From the IMG/VR virus record IMGVR_UViG_3300028833_000120, positions 1 to 64,000 of that record: a stretch of 64,000 nt of DNA, one strand, 5' to 3'. Shown piece after piece: positions 23,047 to 42,319 of the stretch. The position numbers and the translations under genes are program-made. How positions within the stretch are numbered: the first letter of the stretch is position 1; every line of letters begins with the position of its first letter. Source of the DNA: a virus. Lineage: Duplodnaviria; Caudoviricetes. The notes under the pieces were generated by a model that saw only the letters and a program-made list of their open reading frames with translations, was not told the origin of the DNA and made no database searches.

Positions 23047-23814
23047 TTACCACAATGGGAACATTTTTTCATTTTTTATTTTTTCAATCCTCTTATTTGC
23101 AGTATTACAATATTCCGTGCTTATTTCTGCACCGATATATTTCCTATCTAAATTTTCACATACACAGCAAGTTGTTCCAACACCGGAAAACGGGTCAAAC
23201 ACAACATCACCTTTATATGTAAAAAGTTTCAAAATTCTTTCAACCAATTCTTCTGGAAACATCGCCGGATGACCAAATTCTTTCATTCTTTTTTCAGGAG
23301 GTATCACCCACTTGGCCGTAGTGTATAACTTGAACTCCTCACCGGTTATGTCTATATTTTCTTTTAGTCCTTTATGTTTCGGAGAGTTTTTATAGAAGTA
23401 TTCAACATATTCCCATGTGTATTTCAAATATGGTTGTGACGGACTCTTCCAACTACCCCATGTTGTATATGCACAATTATAGTTATTCTTCTCCCAAAGT
23501 ATCTCACCTCCCCAAGTAAGTCCAAGTTCGGTAAGAATTTTTGTAACGATATGATGTGTCGGATAGTTATTTGTAAAAACCGGTTGCACATTGACAAACA
23601 TTCTTCCACCATCCTTTAAAACTCTAACACACCCTTTGAATATATTCGTTAAAAACTCCTCATATTTCTCAGGTTGAAACTTATCGTCATAATTATTATA
23701 TTCCTTTTGGAACATATATGGTGGACTTGTAATGATACAATCGACAGACGAGTCACACATTTTTTCAATAATTGTGATACAATCCTCGTTATATATTTTA
23801 TTAAGTTCTATCAT
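23047..23814 (-). CDS. Beta-class N4C/N6A DNA methyltransferase
   Basis: TSPPY, HPAMFP and FDPFSGVGTT. Confidence 0.92.
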   Translation of the reverse strand: MIELNKIYNEDCITIIEKMCDSSVDCIITSPPYMFQKEYNNYDDKFQPEKYEEFLTNIFKGCVRVLKDGGRMFVNVQPVFTNNYPTHHIVTKILTELGLTWGGEILWEKNNYNCAYTTWGSWKSPSQPYLKYTWEYVEYFYKNSPKHKGLKENIDITGEEFKLYTTAKWVIPPEKRMKEFGHPAMFPEELVERILKLFTYKGDVVFDPFSGVGTTCCVCENLDRKYIGAEISTEYCNTANKRIEKIKNEKMFPLW

Positions 23815-23861
23815 ATATTAAATATAACAAAAAAGGAGAGATTTTTAAATCTCTCCTTTTT

Positions 23862-25970
23862 TTAAGACATGCTTCTTTTTGAATCAATAAGCGTTTTTTG
23901 AAGAATTAACATCTTCCACATTTTTTCACTATTTTCACTGCTCCCAATATATTTTCTCAAAGTTGTTATTGTTCTAAATACAACTTTTCCGTATATTTCC
24001 GTCTCAGTATTATACTTTCCATCAACAATATCTTCCATATAACTCATAACATTATCAATGTCTGAACCTTCGGCCTTTCCTTTTTTTGGAAGAATTCTCA
24101 TTTCGTCTGGAAGTTCTTCATTATTTATATCATCATATATCTTTCTTTTAATCCATTCCCAAACAACTCTTTGTGTTGGACTTATATCAATAACAGTCAA
24201 ACGTGAAGAAAGTGCTCCCCAATGAGGGGCAATAAGTCTACTGTTTGAAAACTTTTCTATTGGTTTATTACTTACAAAAACTATAAAACCATTAAAAATA
24301 AACTGATTAGGAATAAGGGCACGTTGTTTTTGTTCAGCATATTTCTCAAAATTCTGTTCTGCTTGCAATCTCAAAGCGGCAGCACTCATTCCTGAATATT
24401 CTGGGTCTTTTTTCGTTTTTGCTTCATCTTCAGCTGTAAGTTTCTTTATTTCTTTTTTAATCCATATTCCTCTATCATACTCAGATATTGAACCAACTTC
24501 TAAATAATATCTTTCACGTCTAGATAATCTTTCACCCATAACGTCGTAAAATTCAGATTTTTGGTCTCCAGCATTAAGACCTCTTGCTGTTGGAGCAGTA
24601 AGTTTTCTCTCCTTTTCCGTTTCAGATGTTGCTTTCTTGAAAAGAGAAATCTTATCATCATCATCCCATATATTTGGAGTGTCGTCATATATAAGTACCA
24701 TATTATTAAACCTATATAGGTTTTTATATACAGCTTGTGGTGTTGATACTGCACCTATACTAATATAATGAATACCTTCTATTGCACCAGTATTTTTAAT
24801 TGCTTTTTCTATACCGACAGATTTACCAATACCAGCAGTACCTGTGACAAGGATACCTCTTGTAAGTGCCATAATACCTTCAAGTTTTTCGGTAGACCCT
24901 TCTTTACCGCCTTTCTTAACGTATTCTAACATTGCTTCAACAGACCGTCTTTCAAATTCCATACGTTCTTCCAAATCATCAATTTTTTCATTGATGACAC
25001 TTTCAGCCTCTCTAACATCCCAAAGACCATGTTCATTGATATATGTTGACAATCTACCACTCTTTCCTGCATTAAAAAACCACAAATCTTTCAATTCTTG
25101 TGCCTTATCATCAGTAAGACCATGTGTTGTTCCACACAATGCCATATGTACAAGTGTAATTGTTCTATGTCCATTTGTACTATCCAAATCGCCGGTAGAT
25201 GTAATGAATAAAGCTCTCTGAACTTGATAAAGGTCTTCCGTTTCATCAAAAAAATCAGTAGTCATTATTTTAAGAATATCTGGGTCATCATATTTCTCAA
25301 AAAGTTTTAAAAATTCATTTGCAGATTCTCTTGAAATAGTGGTATCATCAGTCTCTCTTGTTCTTGAAGACTTACTTACCAATTTTCCCATAAAGGCGGC
25401 TGTGATTTTTTTAGGAGAACCGTCTGAAATTTTTGTAACAGGTGATATTCCTATTTCCGCCTTCGGTGTAACTTCTCTTGCTTCAGATATAGGTGAATAT
25501 TTGTTATTTATAACATTAAGTGTAGATATAAGTGTTCTTATCATCGACAACCAACCAAATTTTTTTGTAGATACAGAAAACACCGATTTAGCGTTACTAT
25601 TTTCAAGTGGGTCTTCATTAAAGAAAATTATCACTTTATCGATACCACTTTTCGACAACACCAAATAAAATTCATCACAATATATCATTGTAGCCTTTTT
25701 TCCATTAGCTGTGATTATATATGGATGAACATTCCAATCAATATTATCAAAATTATTCTTAAGATGTTTTAAAATAATAGATGTTGCCTTCAACAAATAC
25801 CTATTATCTGAAACAAATTCCGGTTTATCAAAGTCTTCTTCTGTATTGAAAACATCACCAATATTACTACCATTACCATCTATACCTGGTACATAAACAC
25901 CAGGTATACTATTTTCAAATAACGAAGTATAACCAGATTTTTTCAAAAATTCATTAAAACTTTCAATCAT
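23862..25970 (-). CDS. P-loop/AAA-like ATPase, late gene with capsid-targeting-like N-terminus
   Basis: GTAGIGKS, VLIYDD, FVSN and ALSSR; N-terminus MIESFNEFLKK; CATAAATA at 26000-26007. Confidence 0.75.
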   Translation of the reverse strand: MIESFNEFLKKSGYTSLFENSIPGVYVPGIDGNGSNIGDVFNTEEDFDKPEFVSDNRYLLKATSIILKHLKNNFDNIDWNVHPYIITANGKKATMIYCDEFYLVLSKSGIDKVIIFFNEDPLENSNAKSVFSVSTKKFGWLSMIRTLISTLNVINNKYSPISEAREVTPKAEIGISPVTKISDGSPKKITAAFMGKLVSKSSRTRETDDTTISRESANEFLKLFEKYDDPDILKIMTTDFFDETEDLYQVQRALFITSTGDLDSTNGHRTITLVHMALCGTTHGLTDDKAQELKDLWFFNAGKSGRLSTYINEHGLWDVREAESVINEKIDDLEERMEFERRSVEAMLEYVKKGGKEGSTEKLEGIMALTRGILVTGTAGIGKSVGIEKAIKNTGAIEGIHYISIGAVSTPQAVYKNLYRFNNMVLIYDDTPNIWDDDDKISLFKKATSETEKERKLTAPTARGLNAGDQKSEFYDVMGERLSRRERYYLEVGSISEYDRGIWIKKEIKKLTAEDEAKTKKDPEYSGMSAAALRLQAEQNFEKYAEQKQRALIPNQFIFNGFIVFVSNKPIEKFSNSRLIAPHWGALSSRLTVIDISPTQRVVWEWIKRKIYDDINNEELPDEMRILPKKGKAEGSDIDNVMSYMEDIVDGKYNTETEIYGKVVFRTITTLRKYIGSSENSEKMWKMLILQKTLIDSKRSMS

Positions 25971-26040
25971 ATTTTTTGTTTATATTATATTATTTAAAGT
26001 ATTTATGAAAAAAGAAAAAGGAGGATAAACCTCCTTTTAA

Positions 26041-26910
26041 TCACCACAAACCATTATCATTGTTATAGTTTAAGTAAAGACTCTCATATACGATTGCATT
26101 TTTATCTTTACCGGTTGTTCTTTTGAAAGATGAGTTTCCACTTTTGATATAAAGATGTCTTCTGTAACACTTTTCTGGTACAGAGTATGTGTTGTCAATA
26201 TCACCGGATTTCCCATCAAATGAAAGTGCAAACTTCACATTCATTTTCGAAACATTTTCAAGAAAAACAAAGAACGACTCAAAGTCTATCCCTCCGAAAT
26301 ACATTCCCTTGGTGTTGAAATACGGTGGGTCCATATAAATGAAATCACCTTCTTTTATTTCATCAAGTATTTCTTCATAGGAACGATGTACAAACTCGAC
26401 GTTATTTTTTCTCAATTTGTCACTCCATTCATTTAATATGGGTTTCAACAATTCTGGTTTGATTCCATTTCTTGTTATGTGAAAACTATTGTTGAACTCA
26501 CCCATCTGATTATATCTCGGCATACCGTTTGTGGTTGTTCTCATTATGAAGAAAAACACAAGTGGGTCGTGGTTCTCGTTGTATATCTTCCTTTGTTCCT
26601 CAAAAAATTTCCTCTTACGGTCTATATCGTTGTCTTTGTTCAACTCTTCCCACAGTTTCACATAAGACTCATATATCTCATCCGGTGAATGCTTTACTTT
26701 TTTCCACAATTCAATAAGGTCTTGGTTTATGTCAGAACACACATATCTCTTCACAAATATTCCAGAGTTAATCAAACCCATAAGCATCGAACAACCACCA
26801 CAGAAAGGCTCGTAGTATGTGTCGATTGTCTGTGGGAAATACCCAAGAATATCTTCACACTGACTTCTTTTTGAACCACTCCACTTTATAACCGGTTGAA
26901 ACTTAACCAT
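26041..26910 (-). CDS. D12-class (Dam-like) N6-adenine methyltransferase, paralogue of 8625
   Basis: IKWSGSKR, YYEPFCGGCSM and YMDPPY. Confidence 0.9.
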   Translation of the reverse strand: MVKFQPVIKWSGSKRSQCEDILGYFPQTIDTYYEPFCGGCSMLMGLINSGIFVKRYVCSDINQDLIELWKKVKHSPDEIYESYVKLWEELNKDNDIDRKRKFFEEQRKIYNENHDPLVFFFIMRTTTNGMPRYNQMGEFNNSFHITRNGIKPELLKPILNEWSDKLRKNNVEFVHRSYEEILDEIKEGDFIYMDPPYFNTKGMYFGGIDFESFFVFLENVSKMNVKFALSFDGKSGDIDNTYSVPEKCYRRHLYIKSGNSSFKRTTGKDKNAIVYESLYLNYNNDNGLW

Positions 26911-26913
26911 ATC

Positions 26914-27660
26914 TTAAATTCCTATTCTTTTTTCTGCAATATCGAAATATTTTTTATTCAATTCTATTCCAATAAAATCCCTGTTCAAATTTCTGCAAGC
27001 GACTCCAGTGGTACCGCTACCCATAGTCATATCCATAACCAAATCACCCTCTTTTGTGTATGTTTTTACAAGATATTCGAGAAGAGCGATGGGTTTCTGT
27101 GTTGGATGCAAATGTGACTTGTCTGTATTGAACTCAAGTATATTGTATGGATATCTCAACGAAGTATCCCTGTCTTTGTGTCTGTATACACCGTTCTTGT
27201 GGTTTTCTGCAAATATCGAAGTTGTTTTACTCTCTTTCGGAAGAGTATATTTTTCACCTTTTATCATCTGTGGATAATAAGGCATTTTCTTCTCACCATA
27301 TCTTGCATAACCGTTTGAAAAAACAGAAATGATTTCTATATTGTTCAACGGTTGGTATGGCGCTTGTGGAAAATTTGACTTCGTGTCTTTTTTCCAAATC
27401 CAGTCATACTTGAACTCATCGACATTTGACATTCTCAACATAGACGAAAACGGTTCCTTACCAAACAGTATAATGGGAATGTAATCTTTACGTAGTTGTT
27501 TTATACACCCCCACAATTCGTCAAACGGAATCACAAAATCCCATTTTTTGCATCGACTTGTACCATAAGGCAAATCACATATAACTGCATCAACTTTCAC
27601 ACCCCATTCAATAAGTTTGTGCATAATATCTATACAATCACCATTATACAGTTCAAACAT
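26914..27660 (-). CDS. Beta-class DNA methyltransferase
   Basis: CDLPY, HPTQKP and DMTMGSGTT. Confidence 0.9.
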   Translation of the reverse strand: MFELYNGDCIDIMHKLIEWGVKVDAVICDLPYGTSRCKKWDFVIPFDELWGCIKQLRKDYIPIILFGKEPFSSMLRMSNVDEFKYDWIWKKDTKSNFPQAPYQPLNNIEIISVFSNGYARYGEKKMPYYPQMIKGEKYTLPKESKTTSIFAENHKNGVYRHKDRDTSLRYPYNILEFNTDKSHLHPTQKPIALLEYLVKTYTKEGDLVMDMTMGSGTTGVACRNLNRDFIGIELNKKYFDIAEKRIGI

Positions 27661-27661
27661 A

Positions 27662-28396: not shown

Positions 28397-28616
28397 TATT
28401 CAAATATAAGTATTCTACTTTACATTTTTCACAAGTTTCCCATTTAATCCATTCGAGTGCCTTTTCAAATGTGTCAAATTCAACATAGTCACTCCATTCA
28501 CCAATATATCCAAAATAATGCCACCAACTCCACCAATGCTTATGTTGTGGGAAATAAGTAACCGAAATCTTTCCGTCGATTCCCTTTGATTTTACTTTCT
28601 TAATTCTATATTTCAT
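28377..28616 (-). CDS. Small Trp-rich hypothetical protein inside the MTase array
   Basis: MKYRIKK...YFPQHKHWWSWWHY; ATG directly after the preceding stop. Confidence 0.65.
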   Translation of the reverse strand: MKYRIKKVKSKGIDGKISVTYFPQHKHWWSWWHYFGYIGEWSDYVEFDTFEKALEWIKWETCEKCKVEYLYLNNEYKVI

Positions 28617-28617
28617 A

Positions 28618-29367
28618 CTAAAATAAAGTTTTATTATTCGACTCAGCTTCAATTATTCTCAGTTTTGCAATCTTGAAAAACCTTTCCTCGATTTCAAATC
28701 CTATAAATTTTCTGTTTGTATTGATGCAAGCGACAGCGGTCGTTCCACTACCTATACAATTGTCCAACACCAATCCACCTTCCGGACAATACGACTTCAC
28801 CAAAAATTCAATCAACTCAACCGGTTTCTGTGTAGGATGTATCTGGTCCTGTCTTCTCCATTTTTGTGGAAAGTCTAAAACCGTGATTGGATGACGTGTT
28901 CCTTTGTTGTCAGTCTCGACACCTTTTATCCCATATCCAAGATTATTCACTTTGTTTGGAGTATACTTTCTTTTATATGGAGTTCCTTTTGACATCTGTG
29001 GTTCATAGTATGCTGCCGACTCACCGAATACAAGTATCATCTCGTGTTTCTTTAACGGCATATACTTTGCCGTAAGAGGAGACCCACACTTCGATTTCTT
29101 CCAAACCATATCATATCTGAAAAGTTTCTCATTTGAGATGGCAAGTTTAAATGCAAAAAGACCGGAACCGAAAAGAATGATATTTCCTTTCGGTTTGATT
29201 ATCCTCTCATATTGTCCCCACAACTTATCGACTGGGAGTTGAACATCCCAATTCATTGATGTTGATTGATAAGGTGGGTCACAAATGATACAGTCAACAG
29301 AATGGTCGTCAATCTTCTTCATCCCTTCAAGACAATCCTCGTTATATATTTTATTAATTTCTAACAT
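28618..29367 (-). CDS. Beta-class DNA methyltransferase
   Basis: CDPPY, HPTQKP and DNCIGSGTT. Confidence 0.92.
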   Translation of the reverse strand: MLEINKIYNEDCLEGMKKIDDHSVDCIICDPPYQSTSMNWDVQLPVDKLWGQYERIIKPKGNIILFGSGLFAFKLAISNEKLFRYDMVWKKSKCGSPLTAKYMPLKKHEMILVFGESAAYYEPQMSKGTPYKRKYTPNKVNNLGYGIKGVETDNKGTRHPITVLDFPQKWRRQDQIHPTQKPVELIEFLVKSYCPEGGLVLDNCIGSGTTAVACINTNRKFIGFEIEERFFKIAKLRIIEAESNNKTLF

Positions 29368-30151
29368 ATTAAAATAAACTATATTCTTTTTCTTGCAATT
29401 CTTCTTTTATTCTCTTACAAGATTTATCATAATATTCTTTGTTCAATTCAAATCCGATAAAATTTCTATTTTCTCTTATACAAGCGATAGCAGTTGTACC
29501 AGACCCCATGCAGTTGTCAAGAACCAAATCATCCTCGTTTGTATATGTACGAACCAAATATGCAACAAGGTCAACTGGTTTCTGTGTCGGATGGATTTTA
29601 GATTTATCACGATTATACTTCAGTATAGATGTCGGGTATCTATCTCCATTATTGACAGTTATAGTTTCTTTATTGTTCTTATAGTCATAATTTGTTCCGA
29701 CACCACCTTGTTTGCATATATAAGGTTTTCCCGTTCCCATCTGTGGGTGGTATGTCATTGCATCATCAGAATTTTTCACAAAACAAGCAGCCTTTTTGGA
29801 AAACACAAGTATATTCTCATGCTTCTTCAATGGGGCAAAATTACTGTTAAGATGACCTGTTCCGGAATCTTTTTCCCATATCCACTCATATTTCAACATC
29901 TCAATATTACTTGCACCAAGTATTTTATCGAAAGGAGTCTGGGCAAACAACACAATTGCTCCAGCTGGTTTTATGATACGTTTATATTCAGTCCATAAAG
30001 AATCGAGTGGTATGACACTATCCCAACTATTCTTTGTTGTCCCATAAGGTAAATCACAAATGATACAATCAATTGATTCATCATCTATCTTCTTCATCCC
30101 TTCAAGACAATCCTCGTTATATATTTTATTGATTTCTAACATATTAAAATA
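29312..30151. repeat. 65-bp direct repeat (29312-29376 and 30087-30151, one mismatch) spanning MTase gene junctions
   Basis: ATCTTCTTCATCCCTTCAAGACAATCCTCGTTATATATTTTATT(A/G)ATTTCTAACATATTAAAATA. Confidence 0.85.
29369..30142 (-). CDS. Beta-class DNA methyltransferase
   Basis: CDLPY, HPTQKP and DNCMGSGTT. Confidence 0.92.
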   Translation of the reverse strand: MLEINKIYNEDCLEGMKKIDDESIDCIICDLPYGTTKNSWDSVIPLDSLWTEYKRIIKPAGAIVLFAQTPFDKILGASNIEMLKYEWIWEKDSGTGHLNSNFAPLKKHENILVFSKKAACFVKNSDDAMTYHPQMGTGKPYICKQGGVGTNYDYKNNKETITVNNGDRYPTSILKYNRDKSKIHPTQKPVDLVAYLVRTYTNEDDLVLDNCMGSGTTAIACIRENRNFIGFELNKEYYDKSCKRIKEELQEKEYSLF

Positions 30152-30884
30152 CTTTTACTTCATTTTGTACTTCTGAAATTCTTCTTTTTGCAATATCGTA
30201 AAATCCTTTGTCTATTTCAAATCCTATGAAATCACGACCGAGATTGAGACAAGCGACACCGGTACTTCCACTACCCATACAACCGTCGAGTACAACATCA
30301 CCTTCGTTTGTTGATATGAATACAATCCTCTCCATCAGTAAAACTGGTTTCTGTGTCGGGTGGTTTGTCTTTTCCTTTGAGTTGTGTGGAAGTGCCGGTA
30401 TATCAGTCCATACATCCGACAGACTAACTCCGTCTTTCAACATACCTTCGGTGTATTCCTTTCTTTTTGTATCTGGTTTCACCTTTATATTATTAAAAAC
30501 CGGTTCGCCTCCAGATTTGGAATAATAAGCAATCGGTTCGTAACCGGAAGCGAGGGAGTGACCCCTCGTATTGTTGAAACCTCTTTTCCTTGCCCAGATG
30601 ATTATCCTTTTCTCAATCAGATATTTATCAAGCATGTTGCATATTTTCCTATTCATTTGTCTTGATGTGAAAAGAAAGATGTTTCCACCGGGTTTCAATA
30701 CACGAACATACTGCACAATCAAAGACTCAACCCATTCAAGATAACCTTGTTCTGACGACCATTGGTTATCAAACTCCGCCTCAACAACACCAAAATAGGG
30801 CAAATCACAGATAATACAATCTATCGAACAATCTTTTATTTTGTTACGTATTCCGTCGACACAATCTTCATTATACAATTCCAT
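30144..30884 (-). CDS. Beta-class DNA methyltransferase (first gene of the MTase operon)
   Basis: CDLPY, HPTQKP and DGCMGSGST. Confidence 0.9.
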   Translation of the reverse strand: MELYNEDCVDGIRNKIKDCSIDCIICDLPYFGVVEAEFDNQWSSEQGYLEWVESLIVQYVRVLKPGGNIFLFTSRQMNRKICNMLDKYLIEKRIIIWARKRGFNNTRGHSLASGYEPIAYYSKSGGEPVFNNIKVKPDTKRKEYTEGMLKDGVSLSDVWTDIPALPHNSKEKTNHPTQKPVLLMERIVFISTNEGDVVLDGCMGSGSTGVACLNLGRDFIGFEIDKGFYDIAKRRISEVQNEVKVF

Positions 30885-30900
30885 ACACTAAATATAACAA

Positions 30901-30962: not shown

Positions 30963-30965
30963 GAT

Positions 30966-31472: not shown

Positions 31473-32156
31473 CTACCATAACGGAATGTCATCAACCTTT
31501 CCGTCGAACCTTTCCATATTTCCGGTGTCCCAATTCATTATTTTAGCAGGAATTTCAGTTTCCGGAAGACACATTGACACTCCATCCATCCTGAAAAGGT
31601 TATAAGAGACGATTTCTGCCCATTTTTTTACCTCTGTGGGGTCTTTACCGAACTTTGTGGTAAAACTCTCCACAACGGCAGATAAAACGTTCTCACGGGC
31701 AAGAAACAATGAATCTTCCTGCCACTCGTATCCATAAGTTGATTTAAGTGCAAGTTCCGCCAATCGGTACCATTCTTTTTCATCATTGGTTTTTATTCTC
31801 TGAAGTTTTCTGTCAAGAATACCAACCCTCTTGTTGATTGGAATCTTCTCACCACTCGAAACATCATAGAGTGTTGTGAGATATGGTGCTTCACCACAAG
31901 TCACTTCAAGAACTTTTCTTTTGATATATTCCTCATCAGAACCTTTATATTCCTCATCAAACATATCATTCATTCTTTTCACCACCTCAATCGGAGTAAA
32001 AACCTCCGCTTTCTCTTTCGTCCTTGCAGTCTGTACATCGACATTCTTTAAGTAACGTGGTACAACTTCATCAACATTTACATTGAGTTTTCCACCGGTT
32101 GTACGTTCTTCAAGTAAAATTTCTTTTATATTCTTATCTATATTCATTTCAAACAT
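31473..32156 (-). CDS. SAM-binding half of a gamma-class amino-methyltransferase (no catalytic motif IV)
   Basis: EVFTP (motif X), LEVTCGEAPYL (I), YGYEWQ (II), RMDG (III); no NPPY. Confidence 0.75.
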   Translation of the reverse strand: MFEMNIDKNIKEILLEERTTGGKLNVNVDEVVPRYLKNVDVQTARTKEKAEVFTPIEVVKRMNDMFDEEYKGSDEEYIKRKVLEVTCGEAPYLTTLYDVSSGEKIPINKRVGILDRKLQRIKTNDEKEWYRLAELALKSTYGYEWQEDSLFLARENVLSAVVESFTTKFGKDPTEVKKWAEIVSYNLFRMDGVSMCLPETEIPAKIMNWDTGNMERFDGKVDDIPLW

Positions 32157-33016
32157 CTGTCTTTTCTTTTCCTTTCAAAATCAAATCCATTAACATATTC
32201 AAGTATTTCATCTACATCCTCTTCCTCACACCCGACACTAAACAGAAGTTCCCTCTCATTTTCAATCTTCGAGTAGTCAATATCAGGAAACAATCTCCAC
32301 ACCTTTCTTTTCATATTCCTATCGTCTTGACAAATCCACAGACAAAACCTCATAAGATTGGTATGAAGTAAATTCCATACATTCTTTGCAGACTTTTTAT
32401 CACAGAAACCGAGAACAACCTTCGTTGTTGTATCAGTCCTGAAAAACTTGTTTTCCTCTTCGAGACTCAACACACCGACATTCTCCAAAGACTTCTGTGC
32501 AATCCACTTTCCGTTTTCCTTATAGTTTGCATAACTAACATTGATAAACCAAGAATATTGGTTCAACTTCTTCAAGTCTTTTGTTTTATTCCAGTTATAA
32601 TAGTCCTTATTCCAACTACCATACATAGTGACGGTGTGTTTGTACATCTTCTCTTCTTTATCCATAAGAGAACATATCTTTTTTTCTATGTGATTCAGAA
32701 GAATATTATCACCAAAATTCAGTCTGAAATCAAAATTCTTTGAACCTTTCTTGCAAAAATAGATTGCTGGGTCTGTCATTTGTGTTTCTTGAAACAATAC
32801 ACTATCCACAATCTCTATCCTCTCACATCCGAGTCTTTTCAAGAACGTTCTCTCCCTCTCCATTCTCATATCATACAAACATTTAGATGGCATAATGAAA
32901 CAGAGTTTGTCATCAAACACACAAGTACTTGACTTCATTATATTGAAATGAAGCAATCTACTTCCCACCTTATCATGTCCGTATGGTGGATTGCCCACGA
33001 TTACATCAAATCTCAT
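32144..33016 (-). CDS. Catalytic/target-recognition half of a gamma-class (Eco57I/TaqI-like) methyltransferase
   Basis: Begins directly at MRFDVIVGNPPY, has FIMP; no motif I. Confidence 0.75.
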   Translation of the reverse strand: MRFDVIVGNPPYGHDKVGSRLLHFNIMKSSTCVFDDKLCFIMPSKCLYDMRMERERTFLKRLGCERIEIVDSVLFQETQMTDPAIYFCKKGSKNFDFRLNFGDNILLNHIEKKICSLMDKEEKMYKHTVTMYGSWNKDYYNWNKTKDLKKLNQYSWFINVSYANYKENGKWIAQKSLENVGVLSLEEENKFFRTDTTTKVVLGFCDKKSAKNVWNLLHTNLMRFCLWICQDDRNMKRKVWRLFPDIDYSKIENERELLFSVGCEEEDVDEILEYVNGFDFERKRKDRCLK

Positions 33017-34128: not shown

Positions 34129-34969
34129 TGTTCGTTTTATTTTTTGATAAAATATCTTCAAACTCTTTAATCATTTCATCATTTATAAATTTATAACCAT
34201 CTGCTTTTCTACTCTTTTTAATAAACCAACTAAACATTCTTCTTGTATTTGTATCACAAAAATCTGGCATCGAATATGGGTTTGTTGAAACAAATGCTTT
34301 TATTACACTATGATAAAAATCATTTTTTTGTATATATAATTCGATTTCTTTACGATTTGCAACTCTAAATGATTTCTCATCATAGTCCAAATTTTGTAAA
34401 TAATCATCTTTCCATTCAAAATCTTCATCATACCCAACAAGACTTTTGAAAAAATCATCACGTATATCTTCAAATTCAACCAAACATTTTCCTTTACAAG
34501 TATTTACAACATAAACAACAAACGGCATAATTTTCTTTCCATTTATTGTGATACCTTTTTTTCTTATACCTATTGGCATTGTTTCATTACAATGAAACGC
34601 TGATAAATCATTCAATTTTATAGAAATATCATATAAACCTATAGCAGTCATTCGTAATTGTCCTTTGTGGTTTCCTATGAAATACAATGTACCAAAATCA
34701 CCCTCTTCAGTTACACCTTCAATCCAAATAAGATTATCACAACGAATATCAAACATATATTCATCATTTAATTTGATGCAACCAGAATTTTTTGGATGAA
34801 AATCGGTTTCACCACTATCAATGAGTTTATTTTTTTCATAACAAAATAAACAATGTTTATCATCATCGTTTTCTAAAAACATTTTTGCTGTATCACTAAA
34901 CTTTGACATCTTCTTCAATTCTGACATTATAGTTTCATCAGAAACTGATAAATAATTATAAATTTTCAT
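34109..34969 (-). CDS. Hypothetical protein
   Basis: 286-aa ORF co-oriented in the operon. Confidence 0.7.
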   Translation of the reverse strand: MKIYNYLSVSDETIMSELKKMSKFSDTAKMFLENDDDKHCLFCYEKNKLIDSGETDFHPKNSGCIKLNDEYMFDIRCDNLIWIEGVTEEGDFGTLYFIGNHKGQLRMTAIGLYDISIKLNDLSAFHCNETMPIGIRKKGITINGKKIMPFVVYVVNTCKGKCLVEFEDIRDDFFKSLVGYDEDFEWKDDYLQNLDYDEKSFRVANRKEIELYIQKNDFYHSVIKAFVSTNPYSMPDFCDTNTRRMFSWFIKKSRKADGYKFINDEMIKEFEDILSKNKTNNDTEEQ

Positions 34970-34993
34970 ATTCTTATTTTTTTAGTTTATATC

Positions 34994-35746
34994 TTACCAC
35001 AACCCTTCGACAGGTTCATCAACTTCCTTAATCAATCTTTCATTTGCAAATTTTACATACTCATCAGATATTTCAAACCCTATGAAATTCCTTCCAGTCT
35101 GTTTTGCCGCCACGGCAGTCGTCCCACTCCCCATAAAGGGGTCGAGTATCAAATCACCTTCTTTCGAAAAAAGGGTTATTAGTTTCTTTGCAAAATCAAC
35201 AGGGAAACAAGCCCCATGAGTTGATGTGTTATTCTGTTTATGAAAACCAGAAATCACATTGTTTTGCATCCCACGACCGAAATACGAGTTGTTTATCACA
35301 CGACCTTTCTTATCGTCACCCTCCAAAATAACAACAAATTCGTAACAAGAGTTCAATACTTTGTCGTGCATCGCCGGTTGCCCCCCTTTGTGCCAAATCA
35401 TAATGTCTTTTATATATGGTGAGAAATCACCAAGCAGTCTGAAGAACGCTTCCTTGGAACCCGTGACAATTTGGTAGTTGTAACACACAATCTTCGACAC
35501 TCTCAACAACTCTGTCAAAACATCTTTGTGAAAATAATAGTATTCTTCAATAGGAAGGTCATCACCGAAATATTTATACTTCTTACTGAAGTGCTCACCG
35601 TGCTCTCTTACAGTATATTGTCCTTCACGGATACGAGTTCTCATGTTATAAGGTGGTGACGTAAGTACCATATCAACAGACTTGTCTGGAAGTTTCTTCA
35701 ACCCTTCAAGACAGTCTTGGCTATATATTTTGTTTATCTCCAACAT
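34994..35746 (-). CDS. Beta-class DNA methyltransferase
   Basis: Start at MLEINKIY; TSPPY, HGACFP and DPFMGSGTT. Confidence 0.92.
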   Translation of the reverse strand: MLEINKIYSQDCLEGLKKLPDKSVDMVLTSPPYNMRTRIREGQYTVREHGEHFSKKYKYFGDDLPIEEYYYFHKDVLTELLRVSKIVCYNYQIVTGSKEAFFRLLGDFSPYIKDIMIWHKGGQPAMHDKVLNSCYEFVVILEGDDKKGRVINNSYFGRGMQNNVISGFHKQNNTSTHGACFPVDFAKKLITLFSKEGDLILDPFMGSGTTAVAAKQTGRNFIGFEISDEYVKFANERLIKEVDEPVEGLW

Positions 35747-35795
35747 ACAATAAATATAACAAAACATAAATAAGTTATATAAATAAAAAAGAAAC

Positions 35796-36017
35796 ATGAT
35801 TAAAACATTTGAAGATTTCAGTAGAACAAAAATTGAACCAAAATTATACAGTGGTATATTACAATACAGTGGTGAGGAAACCACAGGACAACTTATAGTA
35901 TTTAACAACAATATGTACATATTGTCGGATGAAAATATTTTTGAAGGTAACAACACAATTTTAATCGGTGCCGACGAAGAGACATTGGTAGACCCTAACA
36001 CGGTAAAAGAACTATAA
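35796..36017 (+). CDS. Putative small internal protein
   Basis: MIKTFEDF; CATAAATA at 35765. Confidence 0.6.
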   Translation: MIKTFEDFSRTKIEPKLYSGILQYSGEETTGQLIVFNNNMYILSDENIFEGNNTILIGADEETLVDPNTVKEL

Positions 36018-36062
36018 GTGATAAACTATAAGACATAAACAAATTATATAAATAAAAAAACT

Positions 36063-36410
36063 ATGATTAAAAAATTTGAAGAATTTGTAAACGAATCTCT
36101 AAACCAATTAGATTTTGAACCAATTTTGTGGGGTGTTGAAATCTTTGATGATGAGATGGAGGATGACAAAGGTATTTCCGTAACTCTTGAAAGAGGTGCC
36201 GGTGGTGGTCGAGAACTTATTGAATCACACTGGAAAGTATATGCAATTGAGGATTTGGATGACAGATGGAACGTAAAGGCTATCTGCATCGATTCCGAAG
36301 ATAGAAGATACCAACCAGATGATGAGATTGATTTTGAAGTCAATAAAGACGATGATGTTTGGGACCTTGAATCTTTATTGCAAGATGCTCTTGATAAAGA
36401 AGGATTCTAG
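36063..36410 (+). CDS. Putative small acidic internal protein
   Basis: MIKKFEEFVNES; very D/E-rich; terminator at 36412-36441. Confidence 0.65.
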   Translation: MIKKFEEFVNESLNQLDFEPILWGVEIFDDEMEDDKGISVTLERGAGGGRELIESHWKVYAIEDLDDRWNVKAICIDSEDRRYQPDDEIDFEVNKDDDVWDLESLLQDALDKEGF

Positions 36411-36455
36411 TAAAAAAGACAACACATGGTTGTCTTTTTTTGTTATATTTAATAT

Positions 36456-37226
36456 ATGTTGGAAATAAACCGAATATATAACCAAAATTGTCTCGAAGGT
36501 ATGAAAGAGATAGATGACAAGTCAATCGACTGCATCATCTGTGATTTACCTTATGAGGTTCTCAATAAATCGAATGAAAACGCCAAATGGGACGTTGTGA
36601 TACCTTTTGACAAACTATGGGAACAATACAACAGAATAATCAAGGACAACGGTGCTATATTACTTTTTGGACAGGGTATGTTCACTGCACAGTTGATGAT
36701 GAGTAATTCTTCAATGTGGAGGTATAATCTTATATGGAAAAAAGGAAACCGTTCCACTGGTTTCCTGAATGCAAAAAGGATGCCTCTTCGTAACCACGAA
36801 GACATTGTTGTATTCTACAAGAAACTTCCGACATATAATCCACAGAAAACAGTTGGTGCCAAAAATCATTCACGTGGTTATATGAAAAACGAACAAAAAA
36901 ACCAATGCTATGGTAAATTTGATGCTTCCTTATCCGAAAATGATTTTTCAGGTATGAAGTATCCGACGAGTATAATTGATGTTGAGAAAGAACATTGTAA
37001 GACATTCCACCCGACACAGAAACCGGTTGAACTTATATCATACTTGATAAAGACTTATACAAATGAAGGAGACTTGGTTCTAGACAATTGCATGGGAAGT
37101 GGAACAACTGCAATCGCCTGTATAAAAGAAAACAGAAACTTTATCGGATTTGAAACAAACGAAGAATATTTTGATAAAGCAAACAAAAGAATAAATGATG
37201 AAAAATCAATAGTAAAATTGTTTTAA
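36456..37226 (+). CDS. Beta-class DNA methyltransferase
   Basis: CDLPY, HPTQKP and DNCMGSGTT; promoter at 36437-36451. Confidence 0.92.
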   Translation: MLEINRIYNQNCLEGMKEIDDKSIDCIICDLPYEVLNKSNENAKWDVVIPFDKLWEQYNRIIKDNGAILLFGQGMFTAQLMMSNSSMWRYNLIWKKGNRSTGFLNAKRMPLRNHEDIVVFYKKLPTYNPQKTVGAKNHSRGYMKNEQKNQCYGKFDASLSENDFSGMKYPTSIIDVEKEHCKTFHPTQKPVELISYLIKTYTNEGDLVLDNCMGSGTTAIACIKENRNFIGFETNEEYFDKANKRINDEKSIVKLF

Positions 37227-37241
37227 CAAAAAAGGTTGGAG

Positions 37242-38120
37242 TCATCTTCCAACCTTTTTTGTTTTCCAACCATATTCTTTCATTTTCTCGTGAATATACT
37301 CCATGTCTTTTTTTGACAGTCCAAACTCATCCATCAACGACTCATCCGAATAGTCCACATTATTGGGTTGTGATGGAATCATTTTTAACAGGGATTTAGG
37401 ACATTTTGTAGATTTTTTGAAAAACATTATTACAAAAAGAACCAAGTCAGTATTCAACCATTCTATAAATTTTTTACTGGAGTCCTCACTCGAGAATGTG
37501 AAAACGTTCCATTGTCCGTCAGATATTTCCTTATGTGGTGAAAGATTTTCTTGTGTAAATAAAGTTGGCCAGTCCCATTCATAATTTCCACCATCACGGA
37601 CATGACCACGATGAACCGATAGAAGACAATGCCAACCGAATGGTATATTGTATATTTTCTTAACTCTTTCCTCTCCATGTATGTCAGCGAGTGACATAAA
37701 CGACATCTCTTTTAAATCCAAACTTTTATGTTTGGAAATTTTTTCAATAATCTCCTTATTTTTGAAATGTTCCCCACCAAACCGGATGTTCTTTACAAAG
37801 TCACTCGTTATTCCATATTTTCCTTTCTTTGAAAATGTAAAGATACCGACACCACGTATGATATCAACTGTTCCGAATATATTCCTCAAACCTTCATCAT
37901 ATTCAAAACCAGATAGCATCAACGACGAATATTTCTCACAGAATCTTTTATAATGTGGGTCTTTTTCGTTCATATTGTCGACTACCGATGTCGGGTTTAT
38001 CAGGCACATAACACTTTCATCATCCATATTGTTATCGTATATAGATTTGGTTATCTGTATATACAAAGGGTCCCAGTGACCTTGGTATGGTGGATTGCCT
38101 ACTATAATATCAAATATCAT
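37242..38120 (-). CDS. Second stand-alone NPPY catalytic/TRD half of a gamma-class methyltransferase
   Basis: Begins MIFDIIVGNPPY, has LINP; no motif I. Confidence 0.75.
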   Translation of the reverse strand: MIFDIIVGNPPYQGHWDPLYIQITKSIYDNNMDDESVMCLINPTSVVDNMNEKDPHYKRFCEKYSSLMLSGFEYDEGLRNIFGTVDIIRGVGIFTFSKKGKYGITSDFVKNIRFGGEHFKNKEIIEKISKHKSLDLKEMSFMSLADIHGEERVKKIYNIPFGWHCLLSVHRGHVRDGGNYEWDWPTLFTQENLSPHKEISDGQWNVFTFSSEDSSKKFIEWLNTDLVLFVIMFFKKSTKCPKSLLKMIPSQPNNVDYSDESLMDEFGLSKKDMEYIHEKMKEYGWKTKKVGR

Positions 38121-38167
38121 ATATTAAAAATAACAAACGGAAGATTTTTTTAGTCTTCCGTTCTTAT

Positions 38168-39307
38168 TTATTTCAATTTTTCGTGGTTTCCATAGGCAGT
38201 CTTTGGTATGATTGCAAGTGTGATTGGGAGGATGGATGCAACACCCCATTTCTGAAGTTCAAGACAGATGTCATCAAGTGTTGCACCGGAAGATATGTTG
38301 TCATCGAATATAACAACATGTTTTCCTTTAAGTTTAAGTCTCATATCTTTCAATTTTGGATTTATTACAAAAAGACCTTCGATAGACCTTCTGTGTTTAT
38401 CATCCAAAGACTTGATTTCAAATTTCTTTGCCCTTCCGTTTTCGTCCTTTGTTTTATCTTTACCTCTTCTACCAAAATTATGTCTCCTAATTTTTATGAG
38501 TTCCTCTATGGCCTTTATCTCATTTTTTTTATCCGTCACATCCCGTGTAGGTCTTCCTCTTTTTCCGATTGCATATGCAATAGAATCATTCAGTTCATCA
38601 ACCCTGACCCTTAAATTATAAATGTCTGCATCGAATTGCCAATTCTCAATATCTTTTTGAAGTTTATGTATCTCCATGTCTGTAAGACCGATACTCTTTG
38701 CAACATCTGTATTAACAACGACATTTTTTATATCTTTGATAAGCAAGTCTGGAATACACTTGATACCCGGTGAATCCTTGTATCTCTTCATTATATACTC
38801 AACCATATCCTTGTTGAAATCACTAGAACTCTGTGGAAAAGTTATTATATCGATTGGATTATCTTTTAAAAGATGATATATGTACAAAGATGTCCTCTTC
38901 ATAAATTTGTCGATTGAATCAAAGTCTATATTTCTCTTTTCTATATTCTTGAACTTACTTGGGTGTTTCAAGGCCATAGAAACTCTCATATCCGATATTT
39001 TATATAGGTTGTATGACATCACGTTACTTTTTGGTAGAAGTACTTCATGATATTCAAATTTTTTATCGTCATTGAATATTTCGGTAGATGTTGAATCTGT
39101 ATCATTCTTACCTGGTGTAAATCTAAAAGTTCTGTCGCTTGAACGACCACGTGACCCGAAAGACCATCCTTCACTGCATAAATCAATTTTATCATACCCC
39201 ATCTCATGTTCCTCTTCCATAAGAAGTTCGATAAAATCAAATATAGACAATGAATCTTCAATTATAACATTATCTACAAATTCATCATATGTTTTTATAT
39301 TATTCAT
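38168..39307 (-). CDS. Type I phosphoribosyltransferase-domain protein, late gene with capsid-targeting-like N-terminus
   Basis: PRPP loop VVIFDDNISSGATL; PQSSS; MNNIKTYDEFVD; CATAAATA at 39332-39339. Confidence 0.75.
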   Translation of the reverse strand: MNNIKTYDEFVDNVIIEDSLSIFDFIELLMEEEHEMGYDKIDLCSEGWSFGSRGRSSDRTFRFTPGKNDTDSTSTEIFNDDKKFEYHEVLLPKSNVMSYNLYKISDMRVSMALKHPSKFKNIEKRNIDFDSIDKFMKRTSLYIYHLLKDNPIDIITFPQSSSDFNKDMVEYIMKRYKDSPGIKCIPDLLIKDIKNVVVNTDVAKSIGLTDMEIHKLQKDIENWQFDADIYNLRVRVDELNDSIAYAIGKRGRPTRDVTDKKNEIKAIEELIKIRRHNFGRRGKDKTKDENGRAKKFEIKSLDDKHRRSIEGLFVINPKLKDMRLKLKGKHVVIFDDNISSGATLDDICLELQKWGVASILPITLAIIPKTAYGNHEKLK

Positions 39308-39378
39308 ATCATTAAAATAATCATTTTATAATATTTATGAGAAAGGGCTTGGAACAAAAGTCCCAAGTCCTTTCAATA

Positions 39379-40599
39379 TTAAAACAGAGGAACATCGTGT
39401 GACATGCTTATGTCGATTGGTGAATATCCCATAGCCTCCACAATTCTGTTCATTGGTCCAAGAATAAGCAGGTCGAACATTTTGTCGTAATCGATTTCAA
39501 AACCACTTGCCATATCCATTGGATAATTACCGGCTGGATATGAAAACGCCTGTATAGGTTCTTTCATCTGACAGTCTATATAATAGTCAACATTCCCACG
39601 TTTTTCGATGATTCCACCTTTCGTGAATCTGACTTCTTGATGTTTTCTTACATTTGCAATGTCAGAAACCTTGATTTCACAACATTTCCAGTAAGTATAC
39701 CTTTGTGTTGGTTTTATATATATCACACACAGTTTATCACTGTCAACAAGTGCCGTATATTTTCTTTTATACTTTTCATTACTATTCAACAACCAGTTAT
39801 AGAATGATGCACCCTGCACAGTCACCATCGCCTTTTGCATAAGTTCAATTTCACCAACGTCGGATAAGACATACTCTCCATATTTGTTCATTCCTTTGTT
39901 AACTGAAATCGTCTCAAAGTTCTGCATCATAAAACTTTTCTTGACTGCTTTCATCTGTTTGACAAAACCCTCGATTGTGAATTTTTCTTGTTTGAATATC
40001 CACTTAATCAAATCAGTCATCTGCTTCTTGACCCAAGTCGAACTAGATGTCTGTGCAATCTCAATACCGGTCGGTTTGATTTTAGTGCAAGAATCATAGT
40101 AAACATTTGGCTCAGCCCAAGTGGTATTCTTCACATACTTTTTCTTAGCGAGCCAGATACCAGCCTCATTGTATGCCTCCAACTCGAAGTCGAGAATATT
40201 AGGTGTTCCCTGCTTGGCGGCATAGTCCTCATGTATCTTCTTCAAGAAGTCCTTCATAAACACACGGTCAAGAGTAAGACAGAACTCACGACCTGCTGGT
40301 TCTATTTTATCAATCTCAAAATCATACTTTTCTTTATCGATTGAATCGACATCAAAATATTGTCTTGCATCATCTTCAGTCGGATAACCACCGGAAGACA
40401 CATACACGAATTCTTTCTGGTCATTCGACTTGTTAATCTTGGTGAGTCTCCACACGTCGTGTAACATCCAATCAGTTGAATTTACAATCTCATAAAATGA
40501 ACAGTATACACTATCAGTATCTATGTATCTACTTATAGGTGAGATAGTTACATTTTTATCTGGGATAAACACCCATTTTTTTATGTGTTTTTTCATCAA
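39379..40599 (-). CDS. gp43: Family B DNA polymerase, C-terminal part (palm motif C, thumb)
   Basis: YIDTDS, FELE, AKKKY and GIE; ends VPLF. Confidence 0.88.
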   Translation of the reverse strand: MMKKHIKKWVFIPDKNVTISPISRYIDTDSVYCSFYEIVNSTDWMLHDVWRLTKINKSNDQKEFVYVSSGGYPTEDDARQYFDVDSIDKEKYDFEIDKIEPAGREFCLTLDRVFMKDFLKKIHEDYAAKQGTPNILDFELEAYNEAGIWLAKKKYVKNTTWAEPNVYYDSCTKIKPTGIEIAQTSSSTWVKKQMTDLIKWIFKQEKFTIEGFVKQMKAVKKSFMMQNFETISVNKGMNKYGEYVLSDVGEIELMQKAMVTVQGASFYNWLLNSNEKYKRKYTALVDSDKLCVIYIKPTQRYTYWKCCEIKVSDIANVRKHQEVRFTKGGIIEKRGNVDYYIDCQMKEPIQAFSYPAGNYPMDMASGFEIDYDKMFDLLILGPMNRIVEAMGYSPIDISMSHDVPLF

Positions 40600-42319
40600 T
40601 AATCCAACCTTTTTGTGCCCATAGATTCATAAGTCTCTCGGCGTTCAAGATGGCGTGCTTACCTTGTTTCGTAACAGATTCAGCAATATTCTTGTTATAG
40701 AAATAAAAACCGGAGAATCCGAAAGCGCCATAGATACCGTTAATTACGACCTTTGTACCAAGCTGATAGTTGTTGTAGATGTCTGCCTGTGTAGTACAGA
40801 AAGTAAGAACAACATCCATTTGTTTACCAATCAAATCACCAAGGTCGTTCTTTTTCATATAGTCTTCTATCTCTTCTTGACTTGCACCATTGTGCATAAG
40901 GTCTTTCAAGTCATAGTAGCACTGTGTGTATTTGAACGATGTCTTCTTGTATGCCTTTCTTTTGAAATAAAGGTCTGTGATAATCTTCTTCAAATTACCG
41001 TCCTCTTTCTCATAGACTGCACCGGAAGCACATACAATATAACCCTTATCTCTCCACTGTTGTTTCAGTTCCTCATCATCTTCGGGAAGCATCTTGACAA
41101 GTGTTTCCGGACCGATATTGAACTGTCTCATCAAAGACGGATAAAGTGAGGCGTAGTCGTTACATGTGCAATACTTGTGAAGACCTGGAACAGGCTGCTT
41201 GACGAATGCCCCTTCATATTTCTCACCATCACCTTTCTTCTTTGGTTTCGGAGAAACTGCAAGGACACGACCTTGTTCAGCAAACTTCTGTCTTAAAAGA
41301 TTTTCAGGAATATATGTAGTAGAGAAACAATCCATTGCACGGATATGACCCAACCATGCAGTGGTGATACCACAAGTCAATGCATTACACTTCTCGTGGA
41401 TGAGTTTTACGAGACCACAGTCGATAGCGTTGTAATACACATACTTTTGAAAGTTATTATTGAACATATCATCGAGACTCTCACTGTGCTGTACTTTTTT
41501 GATACCACAGAGTTTCTCCCCGATATAGTCGAGTTTGTAATTCTCATTGGAGTTCCAAGTCCATTTCTTGTATGCTTTCAAATAGTCGATAAGACCGACG
41601 TGACATGGACGCTCAAACTGACCAGTCATTTTATGAGTAGGTGACGAAATGTTTATATTTATTTCAAGTTTTTTCGCCCTGTTTATGATATACCTCCAGT
41701 CATATTCCTCAAAGTTCCAACCGGTCATCATAGCCATATTCGGAACAAGTTTGTTCAAGAAGAAATACAACATGTCATATTCCGTATTAAAACAACGGAA
41801 AGCGAACTTGAACTTACGGTTTACTTGTGCAAAATGGTCGTCAATTTGCTTTTGAATATCCTCAATTTGTTTCCTGTTTAAGTTCTTGCCGGAAGAAAGA
41901 ACCATGATAGTATCGTTTGGACAACACACACCGATAACCGTTATCGGTTTATCTGCCTTTTCTGGGTCTGGTTTTCCCTCTTGCATCAAGTTCTCAATAT
42001 CGATAAAAAACATTTCAGGAAGATTATATGAGAATATCCTTTCCTTTACATCTTCCGGAAGATTGTCAACAATCTCATACATCCTATATCTATTCAAGAC
42101 ATGTTTTGGATTTGTGAGATTTAACTTGTGTTTCCACACCTTGTCTTTGTTCCAGTTTTTGACCGTTCCACCGGGTTCATCTTTTTTATCGATGGGTTCT
42201 GTGAGCCAAGTGTACCAATCCTTTTCTTGAATTGGAATCACATCGATGTGTGTCTTGTGGTCATCCCCCCAATAGGAGATTTCCAAATTTGTTCCGTTTT
42301 GTACTAAATCTAATAACAT
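40556..42319 (-). CDS. gp43: Family B DNA polymerase, N-terminal part (3'-5' exonuclease, motifs A and B)
   Basis: FIDIE, GWNFEEYD, YNAID, DYASLYPS and KVVINGIYG. Confidence 0.9.
   Translation of the reverse strand: MLLDLVQNGTNLEISYWGDDHKTHIDVIPIQEKDWYTWLTEPIDKKDEPGGTVKNWNKDKVWKHKLNLTNPKHVLNRYRMYEIVDNLPEDVKERIFSYNLPEMFFIDIENLMQEGKPDPEKADKPITVIGVCCPNDTIMVLSSGKNLNRKQIEDIQKQIDDHFAQVNRKFKFAFRCFNTEYDMLYFFLNKLVPNMAMMTGWNFEEYDWRYIINRAKKLEININISSPTHKMTGQFERPCHVGLIDYLKAYKKWTWNSNENYKLDYIGEKLCGIKKVQHSESLDDMFNNNFQKYVYYNAIDCGLVKLIHEKCNALTCGITTAWLGHIRAMDCFSTTYIPENLLRQKFAEQGRVLAVSPKPKKKGDGEKYEGAFVKQPVPGLHKYCTCNDYASLYPSLMRQFNIGPETLVKMLPEDDEELKQQWRDKGYIVCASGAVYEKEDGNLKKIITDLYFKRKAYKKTSFKYTQCYYDLKDLMHNGASQEEIEDYMKKNDLGDLIGKQMDVVLTFCTTQADIYNNYQLGTKVVINGIYGAFGFSGFYFYNKNIAESVTKQGKHAILNAERLMNLWAQKGWIIDEKTHKKMGVYPR

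Follow-up and report, generated by a model that had tools for sequence, protein, structure and literature searches.

The 64,000-nucleotide window analysed here comprises the first three quarters of a single virus contig of 84,977 bp with about 33% G+C (IMG/VR record IMGVR_UViG_3300028833_000120; Caudoviricetes). It encodes a series of DNA methyltransferases, most of which end in a short C-terminal tail, L-[FW], that is also present on the DNA polymerase of the phage, as well as a predicted sliding clamp that is the proposed receptor of these tails. The contig is estimated to be about 31% complete (CheckV-type estimate). Relatives identified through the clamp gene are contigs of 39-411 kb, two of which are 94-96% complete at 363 kb (G002) and 411 kb (G003), indicating that the contig is part of a jumbo phage genome; the four lineage genomes are labelled G000-G003. 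The replication genes are T4-like and include a gp43-family polymerase, a DnaB-like helicase and a RecA/UvsX-like protein, together with a Mre11-like phosphoesterase, a 5'-3' exonuclease and a gp32-type single-stranded DNA-binding protein (SSB; contig 80530-81519). Late blocks at 43-56 kb and 62-80 kb contain matches to baseplate wedge and hub. A megablast search of 20000-43000 against deposited phages returned no match.

Methyltransferases and other tailed proteins

Ten open reading frames (ORFs) are methyltransferases by the Pfam gathering cut-offs (26.7 bits for PF01555, 22 bits for D12, PF02086; Table 1), eight of them matching PF01555 (N6/N4, beta class; 90-171 bits) and two PF02086 (D12, alpha class; 105 and 121.5 bits). 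An initial annotation of this DNA had listed 13 methyltransferase ORFs from three structural classes; the ten just named are borne out, three lack confirmation (31473-32156, 32144-33016 and 37242-38120) and only the two Pfam classes are proven. The nine methyltransferase tails that it quoted are all present in the sequence where it placed them, as are those of the polymerase and of ORFs 59558-60034, 42451-43059 and 8056-8607.

The eight PF01555 enzymes are paralogues with 23-52% identity to each other, and their alignment shows the tail to be an extension of about ten residues that follows the final helix of the PF01555 fold; ORF 26914-27660 stops where its paralogues start this extension. ORF 34994-36001 was called mechanically as 335 residues from a GTG located 85 codons upstream of an internal methionine (MLEINKIY...). 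Its paralogues align from residue 86, and the N-terminal extension is of low complexity and missing in the 250-residue orthologue; the alignments suggest that the true start is probably the internal methionine, giving a protein of about 250 residues. The second D12-class enzyme ends in SLYWN in G000 and G002 and in NLYIN in G003.

The product of 31473-32156 matches no family in Pfam, PHROG or NCBIfam, and a PDB profile search with it gave nothing significant. Its AlphaFold2 (AF2) model, with a predicted local distance difference test (pLDDT) score of 74.6, yielded no Foldseek matches at E<=1e-3, the top non-significant ones being gamma-class adenine methyltransferases. The stretch VLEVTCGEAPY resembles methyltransferase motif I, and the methyltransferase identity of the protein is putative. 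Its tail is retained in all eight aligned orthologues, down to 44% identity, and occupies residues 219-227, which have pLDDT <50 in the model. This predicted disorder, and the beginning of the tail after the last helix in the PF01555 enzymes, mark it as a flexible appendage. Two 290-residue ORFs on the minus strand, 32144-33016 and 37242-38120, start directly with an NPPY-type motif and show sub-threshold Eco57I matches only. The G003 homologue of 37242 sits within a 1813-residue ORF, and the 31473, 32144 and 37242 ORFs may each encode half of a split or permuted methyltransferase and act jointly.

Three further carriers are neither methyltransferase nor polymerase. ORF 42451-43059 has no family match in Pfam, PHROGs, NCBIfam or Atlas; in G002 both its tail (DNQLF) and its place beside the polymerase are kept, and in G003 a 193-residue ORF ending in NVKLF adjoins the polymerase at the same place. 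A 154-residue G003 ORF ending in EKSLF is assumed, from size alone, to be the counterpart of ORF 59558-60034. The labels that these two proteins had initially received, gp33-like and gp62-like respectively, find no support in Pfam, PHROGs, NCBIfam or Atlas. The third is a deoxyribosyltransferase-like protein (8056-8607).

Against the best-listed named T4-type phage polymerases, that of KVP40 among them, the polymerase shows 27-31% identity. L-[FW] stands at its extreme C-terminus, the location of the T4-type clamp epitope, and 12 other ORFs of the contig share the ending; polymerases in the three genomes compared end in HDVPLF, VEGLW (G002) and ETGLW (G003). Compared with a 97%-identical relative, which has one 994-residue frame, the gene carries a deletion of 2 nt near 40556-40599 and is therefore spread over two overlapping ORFs; the polymerase of relatives is a single frame of 983-994 residues. 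This deletion rules out a natural split of the polymerase; from the sequence, the frame break reflects an error of assembly or else a genuine frameshift.

Table 1. Methyltransferases, other tailed proteins and clamp-related genes in the window
Coordinates	Strand	Feature	C-terminal ending	Basis	G002 orthologue
23047..23814	-	PF01555 N6/N4 DNA methyltransferase	KMFPLW	Pfam, 159 bits	ends KMFQLW
26041..26910	-	D12-class (Dam-like) DNA methyltransferase	DNGLW	Pfam PF02086, 105 bits	
26914..27660	-	PF01555 methyltransferase without tail	KRIGI, at domain boundary	Pfam, 101 bits	
27662..28396	-	PF01555 methyltransferase	TIKLF	Pfam	ends NENKLW
28618..29367	-	PF01555 methyltransferase	NKTLF	Pfam	ends NNVSLW
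29369..30142	-	PF01555 methyltransferase	EYSLF	Pfam	
30144..30884	-	PF01555 methyltransferase	EVKVF (only Val-Phe ending)	Pfam, 171 bits	ends NEIKLF
34994..36001	-	PF01555 methyltransferase	VEGLW	Pfam, domain at residues 109-321	250 residues, ends VDHLW
36456..37226	+	PF01555 methyltransferase	IVKLF	Pfam	
8625..9464	-	Second D12-class methyltransferase	No tail in three genomes compared	Pfam; 50% identical to 26041-26910	
31473..32156	-	Conserved 227-residue protein, no family, putative methyltransferase	DDIPLW		
39379..42319	-	T4 gp43-type family B DNA polymerase	HDVPLF	Pfam DNA_pol_B and exonuclease domains; phrog_262	
42451..43059	+	202-residue protein, no family, divergent from polymerase gene	ENQLF		
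59558..60034	-	158-residue protein	EETLF	Sole match phrog_35599 (unknown function)	ends NEGLF
8056..8607	-	Nucleoside 2-deoxyribosyltransferase-like protein	ETGLF	Pfam PF15891, 52.7 bits	
22113..22994	-	Predicted sliding clamp, two-domain PCNA fold, 293 residues, proposed receptor of the tails		AF2 and Foldseek	
9465..10574	-	AAA+ ATPase, possible clamp-loader subunit		PF00004; phrog_168	

Enrichment and conservation of the tail

Endings were counted over the 83 ORFs of at least 60 residues on the whole 84,977-bp contig. Thirteen of these end in [LVIM][FW], compared with 1.25 expected from internal dipeptide frequency (binomial P 5e-10), and 12 end in L[FW], compared with 0.39 expected; the former count rules out chance as the cause of the endings. 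The tail is present on 8/10 Pfam-supported methyltransferases and on 5/73 other ORFs (Fisher P 1.3e-6), and on 0/24 late-block ORFs compared with 13/59 elsewhere (P 0.016), all carriers being located in the early/replication part of the contig. The comparison of replication and methyltransferase genes with all genes that had been proposed as a check of the initial annotation thus confirms the enrichment, and its observation that structural genes lack the tail holds for the late blocks. It described the carriers as a methyltransferase battery; tails are also found on nucleotide-metabolism and repair enzymes, and the set of putative clients is therefore wider.

The leucine codons (TTG, TTA, CTA, CTT and CTG), the stop codons and the downstream DNA all vary between tails, which places the signal in the protein and rules out a DNA-level motif (promoter, ribosome-binding site or terminator) that fixes the last codons. 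An artefact of ORF calling is likewise ruled out by other phage lineages, in which 31/2051 ORFs from 75 loci end in L[FW], 18 of the 31 as Q-x-x-L-[FW].

The tail is conserved across the lineage (Table 1). At the loci around the clamp gene in twelve related contigs, L[FW] endings are present in 10/22, 7/21 and 10/27 ORFs of the three closer ones and in two to four ORFs per locus in the other nine. G002, the clamp of which is 62% identical, keeps 11/13 window tails in reciprocal-best orthologues; the residues before the tail drift, and phenylalanine and tryptophan are swapped in the polymerase (HDVPLF/YVEGLW) as well as in methyltransferases (TIKLF/NENKLW and NKTLF/NNVSLW). L[FW] ends 16/434 ORFs of this genome; the methyltransferase-polymerase region accounts for 11 of these and also contains an ORF ending in VW that is probably spurious. 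The carriers in G002 include a further PF01555 methyltransferase inside this region and an NT5C-type nucleotidase outside it, and a UvsW-like helicase ends in Val-Phe. In G003 (clamp 47% identical), 13/447 ORFs end in L[FW] compared with 1.9 expected; they include the polymerase, the homologue of 31473, a PF01555-like and a D12-like methyltransferase, and other methyltransferases of this genome are without the tail.

Across 47-88% identity, the terminal dipeptide is kept while the adjoining residues drift, and the sequences indicate selection on the last two residues only. Leucine occupies position -2 in 41/42 lineage tails, and the last residue is phenylalanine in 27/42 and tryptophan in 15/42. 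Position -5 is glutamate, aspartate or asparagine in 27/42 (14, 8 and 5, respectively), and glutamine ranks below the six commonest residues at this position. In the 13 window tails, -5 is never glutamine, and they thus depart from the glutamine/aliphatic pattern of the bacterial beta-clamp motif. The PCNA-interacting protein (PIP) box, Q-x-x-[LIM]-x-x-[FY]-[FY], also fits 0/13 window tails when their last 25 residues are read, and any resemblance to it is functional only.

The sliding clamp and tail types in other phages

According to its predicted structure, the product of 22113-22994 is a sliding clamp with the PCNA fold; 51 homologues of it were found in metagenomes. The AF2 model, built on 25 homologues, has a pLDDT of 89 and a predicted template modelling (TM) score of 0.86, and the protomer consists of two topologically similar beta-alpha-beta-beta-beta domains, as is characteristic of the DNA-clamp fold. 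Foldseek searches of this model against the PDB gave at least 500 matches at E<=1e-3, the top 50 of which are PCNAs and clamp complexes, the best being 1rwz (PCNA; E 6e-14; TM 0.75 by target); TM by target reaches 0.78 among the matches. In BFVD, 174 matches at E<=1e-3 are headed by uncharacterised Tenacibaculum phage proteins, followed by viral PCNAs and T4-type clamps, and among the named clusters of the Atlas, gp45-slide_C and PCNA_N (0.92-0.93) lie nearest. By sequence, the protein matches nothing in Pfam or PHROG, including the curated clamp families PF00705 and PF02747 (PCNA), PF02916 and PF09116 (gp45), and PF00712 and PF02768 (DnaN), the PDB profile search was empty, and tblastn against deposited phages found no match; its identification as the clamp in the initial annotation is therefore right by structure only. 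In G000-G003, a set that includes two genomes of at least 94% completeness, searches gave no match to DnaN (PF00712, PF02768) or to the gp45 N-domain family, and 22113-22994 is the only recognisable clamp in the lineage. A 252-residue ORF of G002 (310865-311623, minus strand) has a sub-threshold match to PF09116 (gp45-slide_C; 15 bits, E 0.0055), and its candidacy as a second clamp was not supported by hhalign, PDB sequence search or PHROGs. A complex prediction of the clamp with the last 35 residues of methyltransferase 36456-37226, run without controls, scored 0.27 against a mark of 0.32, which weighs neither for nor against binding.

Homologues of the tailed methyltransferases occur in phages with other clamps. 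Of the 120 closest 90%-identity clusters to methyltransferase 36456-37226, 98 end in [LVIM][FW] and 58 in strict QLxLF, the bacterial beta-clamp motif; 88/120 of the clusters closest to the D12 methyltransferase 26041-26910 end in L[FW], mostly as GLW. Phage records that are at least 90% complete and contain QLxLF-type methyltransferases encode their own DnaN in 3/5 cases, and the other two, a provirus and a 35-kb phage, would have to rely on the clamp of their host; of near-complete records in which the homologues carry no tail, 0/3 encode DnaN. In a complete 82-kb DnaN phage (G005), L[FW] ends 3/124 ORFs, and all three are its PF01555 methyltransferases (QL[ST]LF). A second jumbo lineage (G004; 387 kb, 93% complete) has no clamp recognisable by sequence. 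Its C-terminal polymerase ORF ends in NKLF and at least five of its PF01555 methyltransferases in x-L-F (three KLF, one RLF and one CLF), and over 80 kb (235001-315000) 14/109 ORFs have x-L-F endings, mostly [KR]LF. Hence, the polymerase and the methyltransferases of one lineage carry tails of the same type, this type changes from one lineage to another, and it matches the clamp where the clamp type is known.

These distributions bear on the origin of the tail. Given that the PF01555 enzymes are paralogues and carry their tail where relatives have QLxLF, the tail looks inherited; comparison of the sequences suggests that it probably descends from a QLxLF-type tail and was re-tuned rather than acquired convergently. 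The initial annotation envisaged convergence of unrelated methyltransferases, which is tenable between classes (PF01555 and D12) and fails within PF01555. Convergence is supported only between the PF01555, D12, polymerase, 31473, 42451 and 59558 families. Gln-to-Glu and Phe-to-Trp changes weaken beta-clamp binding, according to a 2024 review of the beta clamp (PMC11139829). In view of this, the acidic or asparagine residues at -5 and the tryptophan endings point to the phage clamp as receptor rather than that of the host, and the shift from QLxLF would fit a re-tuning towards a different clamp.

Several observations concern genes outside this system. In G005, ORFs 30273-30623, 34145-36304 and 37820-38221, which lie beside the QLxLF methyltransferases, end in DDVPF, DDNAPF and NEPDF. 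These endings, which we take to resemble the acidic C-terminal tip of SSB, may be another docking tail that proteins of this replication module have in common. The replication region of the window includes a 612-residue RimK-like ATP-grasp protein (15483-17321, plus strand) and a protein with two domains, a putative Zn-protease and a GNAT acetyltransferase (18164-19114, plus strand). Tandem DUF285 (BspA-like repeat) ORFs at 14200-14949 and 14951-15475 (plus strand) have identical first 8 residues and nearly identical last residues, and are a recent duplication. Adjacent paralogues of 643 and 592 residues at 626-2557 and 2589-4367 (minus strand), located beside a 1022-residue ORF, have the common N-terminus MKNILDL and both match one 590-residue ORF in G002 (67-70% identity); at a guess from size alone, they are tail-fibre or receptor-binding variants.

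Proposed docking of methyltransferases on the phage clamp

The L-[FW] extension is probably, though by no means certainly, a docking peptide for the PCNA-fold clamp of the phage, through which methyltransferases would be tethered and would modify nascent DNA during replication. The basis of this reading is the tails themselves, their enrichment, class bias and conservation, and the match between tail and clamp, all of which are observed, together with the modelled clamp fold; physical docking, a trimeric ring and an anti-restriction benefit are what we infer from these. Clamps loaded at primer ends would remain on the nascent duplex DNA, each protomer offering one pocket on which the low-affinity L-[FW] tails of the polymerase, about ten methyltransferases of different specificity and a few other enzymes would exchange. 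The gp43-type polymerase would use its tail for processivity, like T4 gp43, and as the methyltransferases carry the same plug, they would be concentrated on clamps on freshly replicated, still unmethylated phage DNA. They would thereby meet unmethylated sites right behind the fork, and many site types would be methylated before host restriction enzymes cut.

Such a system would most plausibly, if with some reservation, be a variant of clamp 'toolbelt' docking in which methyltransferases are the main putative clients. The closest precedent is T4, where the tails of gp43, gp33 and gp55 are interchangeable clamp epitopes; the available text on late transcription names no methyltransferase among the gp45 ligands (PMC2988020). 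As in T4 and RB69, a short hydrophobic, partly acidic peptide stands at the extreme C-terminus behind a variable linker, and several unrelated putative clients, including a gp43-family polymerase, would share one phage-encoded trimeric-type clamp. The clients here differ in being mainly DNA methyltransferases and nucleotide enzymes, the conserved part is L-[FW] at the carboxyl end only, and the clamp is without sequence similarity to gp45. With the bacterial beta motif QL[S/D]LF (Pol II, Pol IV, Pol III alpha, Hda and others), the tail shares the often C-terminal position and, where it ends in phenylalanine, the terminal L-F, and homologues of these methyltransferases in DnaN-encoding phages bear the canonical motif at the same position. 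In contrast to that motif, glutamine is replaced by glutamate, aspartate or asparagine and tryptophan is frequent in this lineage, and the clamp has a PCNA rather than a DnaN fold. In eukaryotic maintenance methylation, DNMT1 is a single cytosine methyltransferase with an internal N-terminal PIP box, whereas a bare C-terminal tail of dipeptide type is found here on about ten N6/N4-type enzymes of different specificity, with a role presumably in restriction protection and not in epigenetic inheritance. The likeness lies in the proposed recruitment of a DNA methyltransferase to new DNA through a clamp-binding peptide, and Dnmt1, recruited in this way to newly replicated DNA, is the sole methyltransferase client named in the portion available of one account of clamp ligands (PMC9690074).

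Although clamp toolbelts and DNMT1-PCNA are textbook matter, a bacterial or phage DNA methyltransferase as a clamp client was not found in the available parts of reviews, and a full-text literature search, with supplements outside its reach, found no report of a phage or bacterial methyltransferase bound to a clamp. The main text from which the beta-clamp motif rules were taken does not contain the words methyltransferase or methylase (PMC11139829). Jumbo phages are described as carrying several methylases as well as PCNA-superfamily clamps, with no link drawn between the two in the text available (PMC7824862). Bacillus subtilis DnmA localises near the replisome, for which its authors invoke substrate availability; the word clamp is absent from the accessible text (PMC9973331).

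Several points weigh against docking on the phage clamp. Just two residues are conserved, far fewer than in the PIP box or the pentapeptide beta motif, and the tail is missing from 2/10 proven methyltransferases and from both NPPY-type ORFs. The G002 orthologue of the deoxyribosyltransferase-like protein is 7 residues shorter and has lost its tail. Of 150 representatives of 50%-identity clusters of the PF01555 query, 15 have an [LM][FW] ending and QLxLF lies close to the C-terminus in 2 others; most relatives therefore function without a tail, which was added in particular clades and does not come with the fold. The association with DnaN rests on the small numbers of 3/5 and 0/3 records. A clamp loader is weakly identified by sequence in ORF 9465-10574, the match of which to phrog_168 ('clamp loader of DNA polymerase'; E 2.7e-8) is exceeded by PHROGs of unknown function. 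Finally, the QLxLF ancestry means that the host beta clamp may be a target.

This last possibility, in which tails dock on host DnaN, alone or besides the phage clamp, and the methyltransferases ride host-loaded clamps, is nevertheless unlikely. It would accommodate the canonical QLxLF of 58/120 closest methyltransferase clusters, the two near-complete phages that have such methyltransferases and no clamp of their own, and the place of L-F as the core of the beta motif (PMC11139829). However, lineage tails lack glutamine (E/D/N at -5 in 27/42) and end in tryptophan in 15/42, both of which weaken beta-clamp binding in the same text (PMC11139829); the gp43-type polymerase of the phage has the same tail and swaps phenylalanine and tryptophan along with the methyltransferases; and the phage encodes a PCNA-fold clamp, with no DnaN match in G000-G003.

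It is similarly improbable that the tails bind another phage hub, such as a gp32-like SSB, a helicase or the polymerase, or constitute a localisation signal for a replication compartment of this jumbo phage. T4 nucleotide-metabolism enzymes are linked to the replisome via gp32 and not the clamp, and the deoxyribosyltransferase-like protein, the NT5C nucleotidase of G002 and the UvsW-like helicase (Val-Phe) are among the carriers. A hub of this kind is difficult to reconcile with the polymerase tail, which occupies the position of the T4 gp43 clamp epitope, with the homologous methyltransferase tails elsewhere, which are a clamp motif and not an SSB- or helicase-binding motif, or with the change of tail type with clamp type. 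That the ending is a C-terminal degradation tag for early proteins, or a remnant of ancestry that no longer functions, is very improbable: the restriction of carriers to the early/replication part and the paralogy of the eight PF01555 enzymes, from which one ancestral tail could have been copied, would suit it, but the ending is found on non-homologous proteins (PolB, D12, PF01555, 31473, 42451 and 59558 families), the dipeptide is held while its neighbours drift, a degron on a replicative polymerase is unlikely, and tail-less enzymes coexist with tailed close paralogues (26914 with 27662; 8625 with 26041), indicating turnover under selection.

Docking on the phage clamp may, more tentatively, reflect a general rule among double-stranded DNA viruses, to which somewhat less than even credence is given: acquired enzymes that modify DNA or handle deoxynucleoside triphosphates would gain the tail of the virus's own polymerase, in a dialect that co-evolves with the clamp. 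Phages with DnaN would use QLxLF, those with the present PCNA-fold clamp L-[FW], and the other jumbo lineage [K/R]LF, and the clamp would be the scaffold of a replication-coupled factory for multi-specificity DNA modification and nucleotide supply that outruns host restriction. If this rule is true, the count of tailed methyltransferases per genome would read out the restriction pressure on a phage.

If the tails dock, phage methylation against restriction would be coupled to replication both spatially and temporally, and this would account for the protection of a genome of about 360 kb at many types of site ahead of attack by host nucleases. Two C-terminal residues would then serve as a signature from which replisome clients of uncultured phages could be predicted, a divergent family of clamps that resembles no known clamp in sequence would become recognisable, and the tail would provide a handle for engineering clamp-tethered DNA-modifying enzymes.

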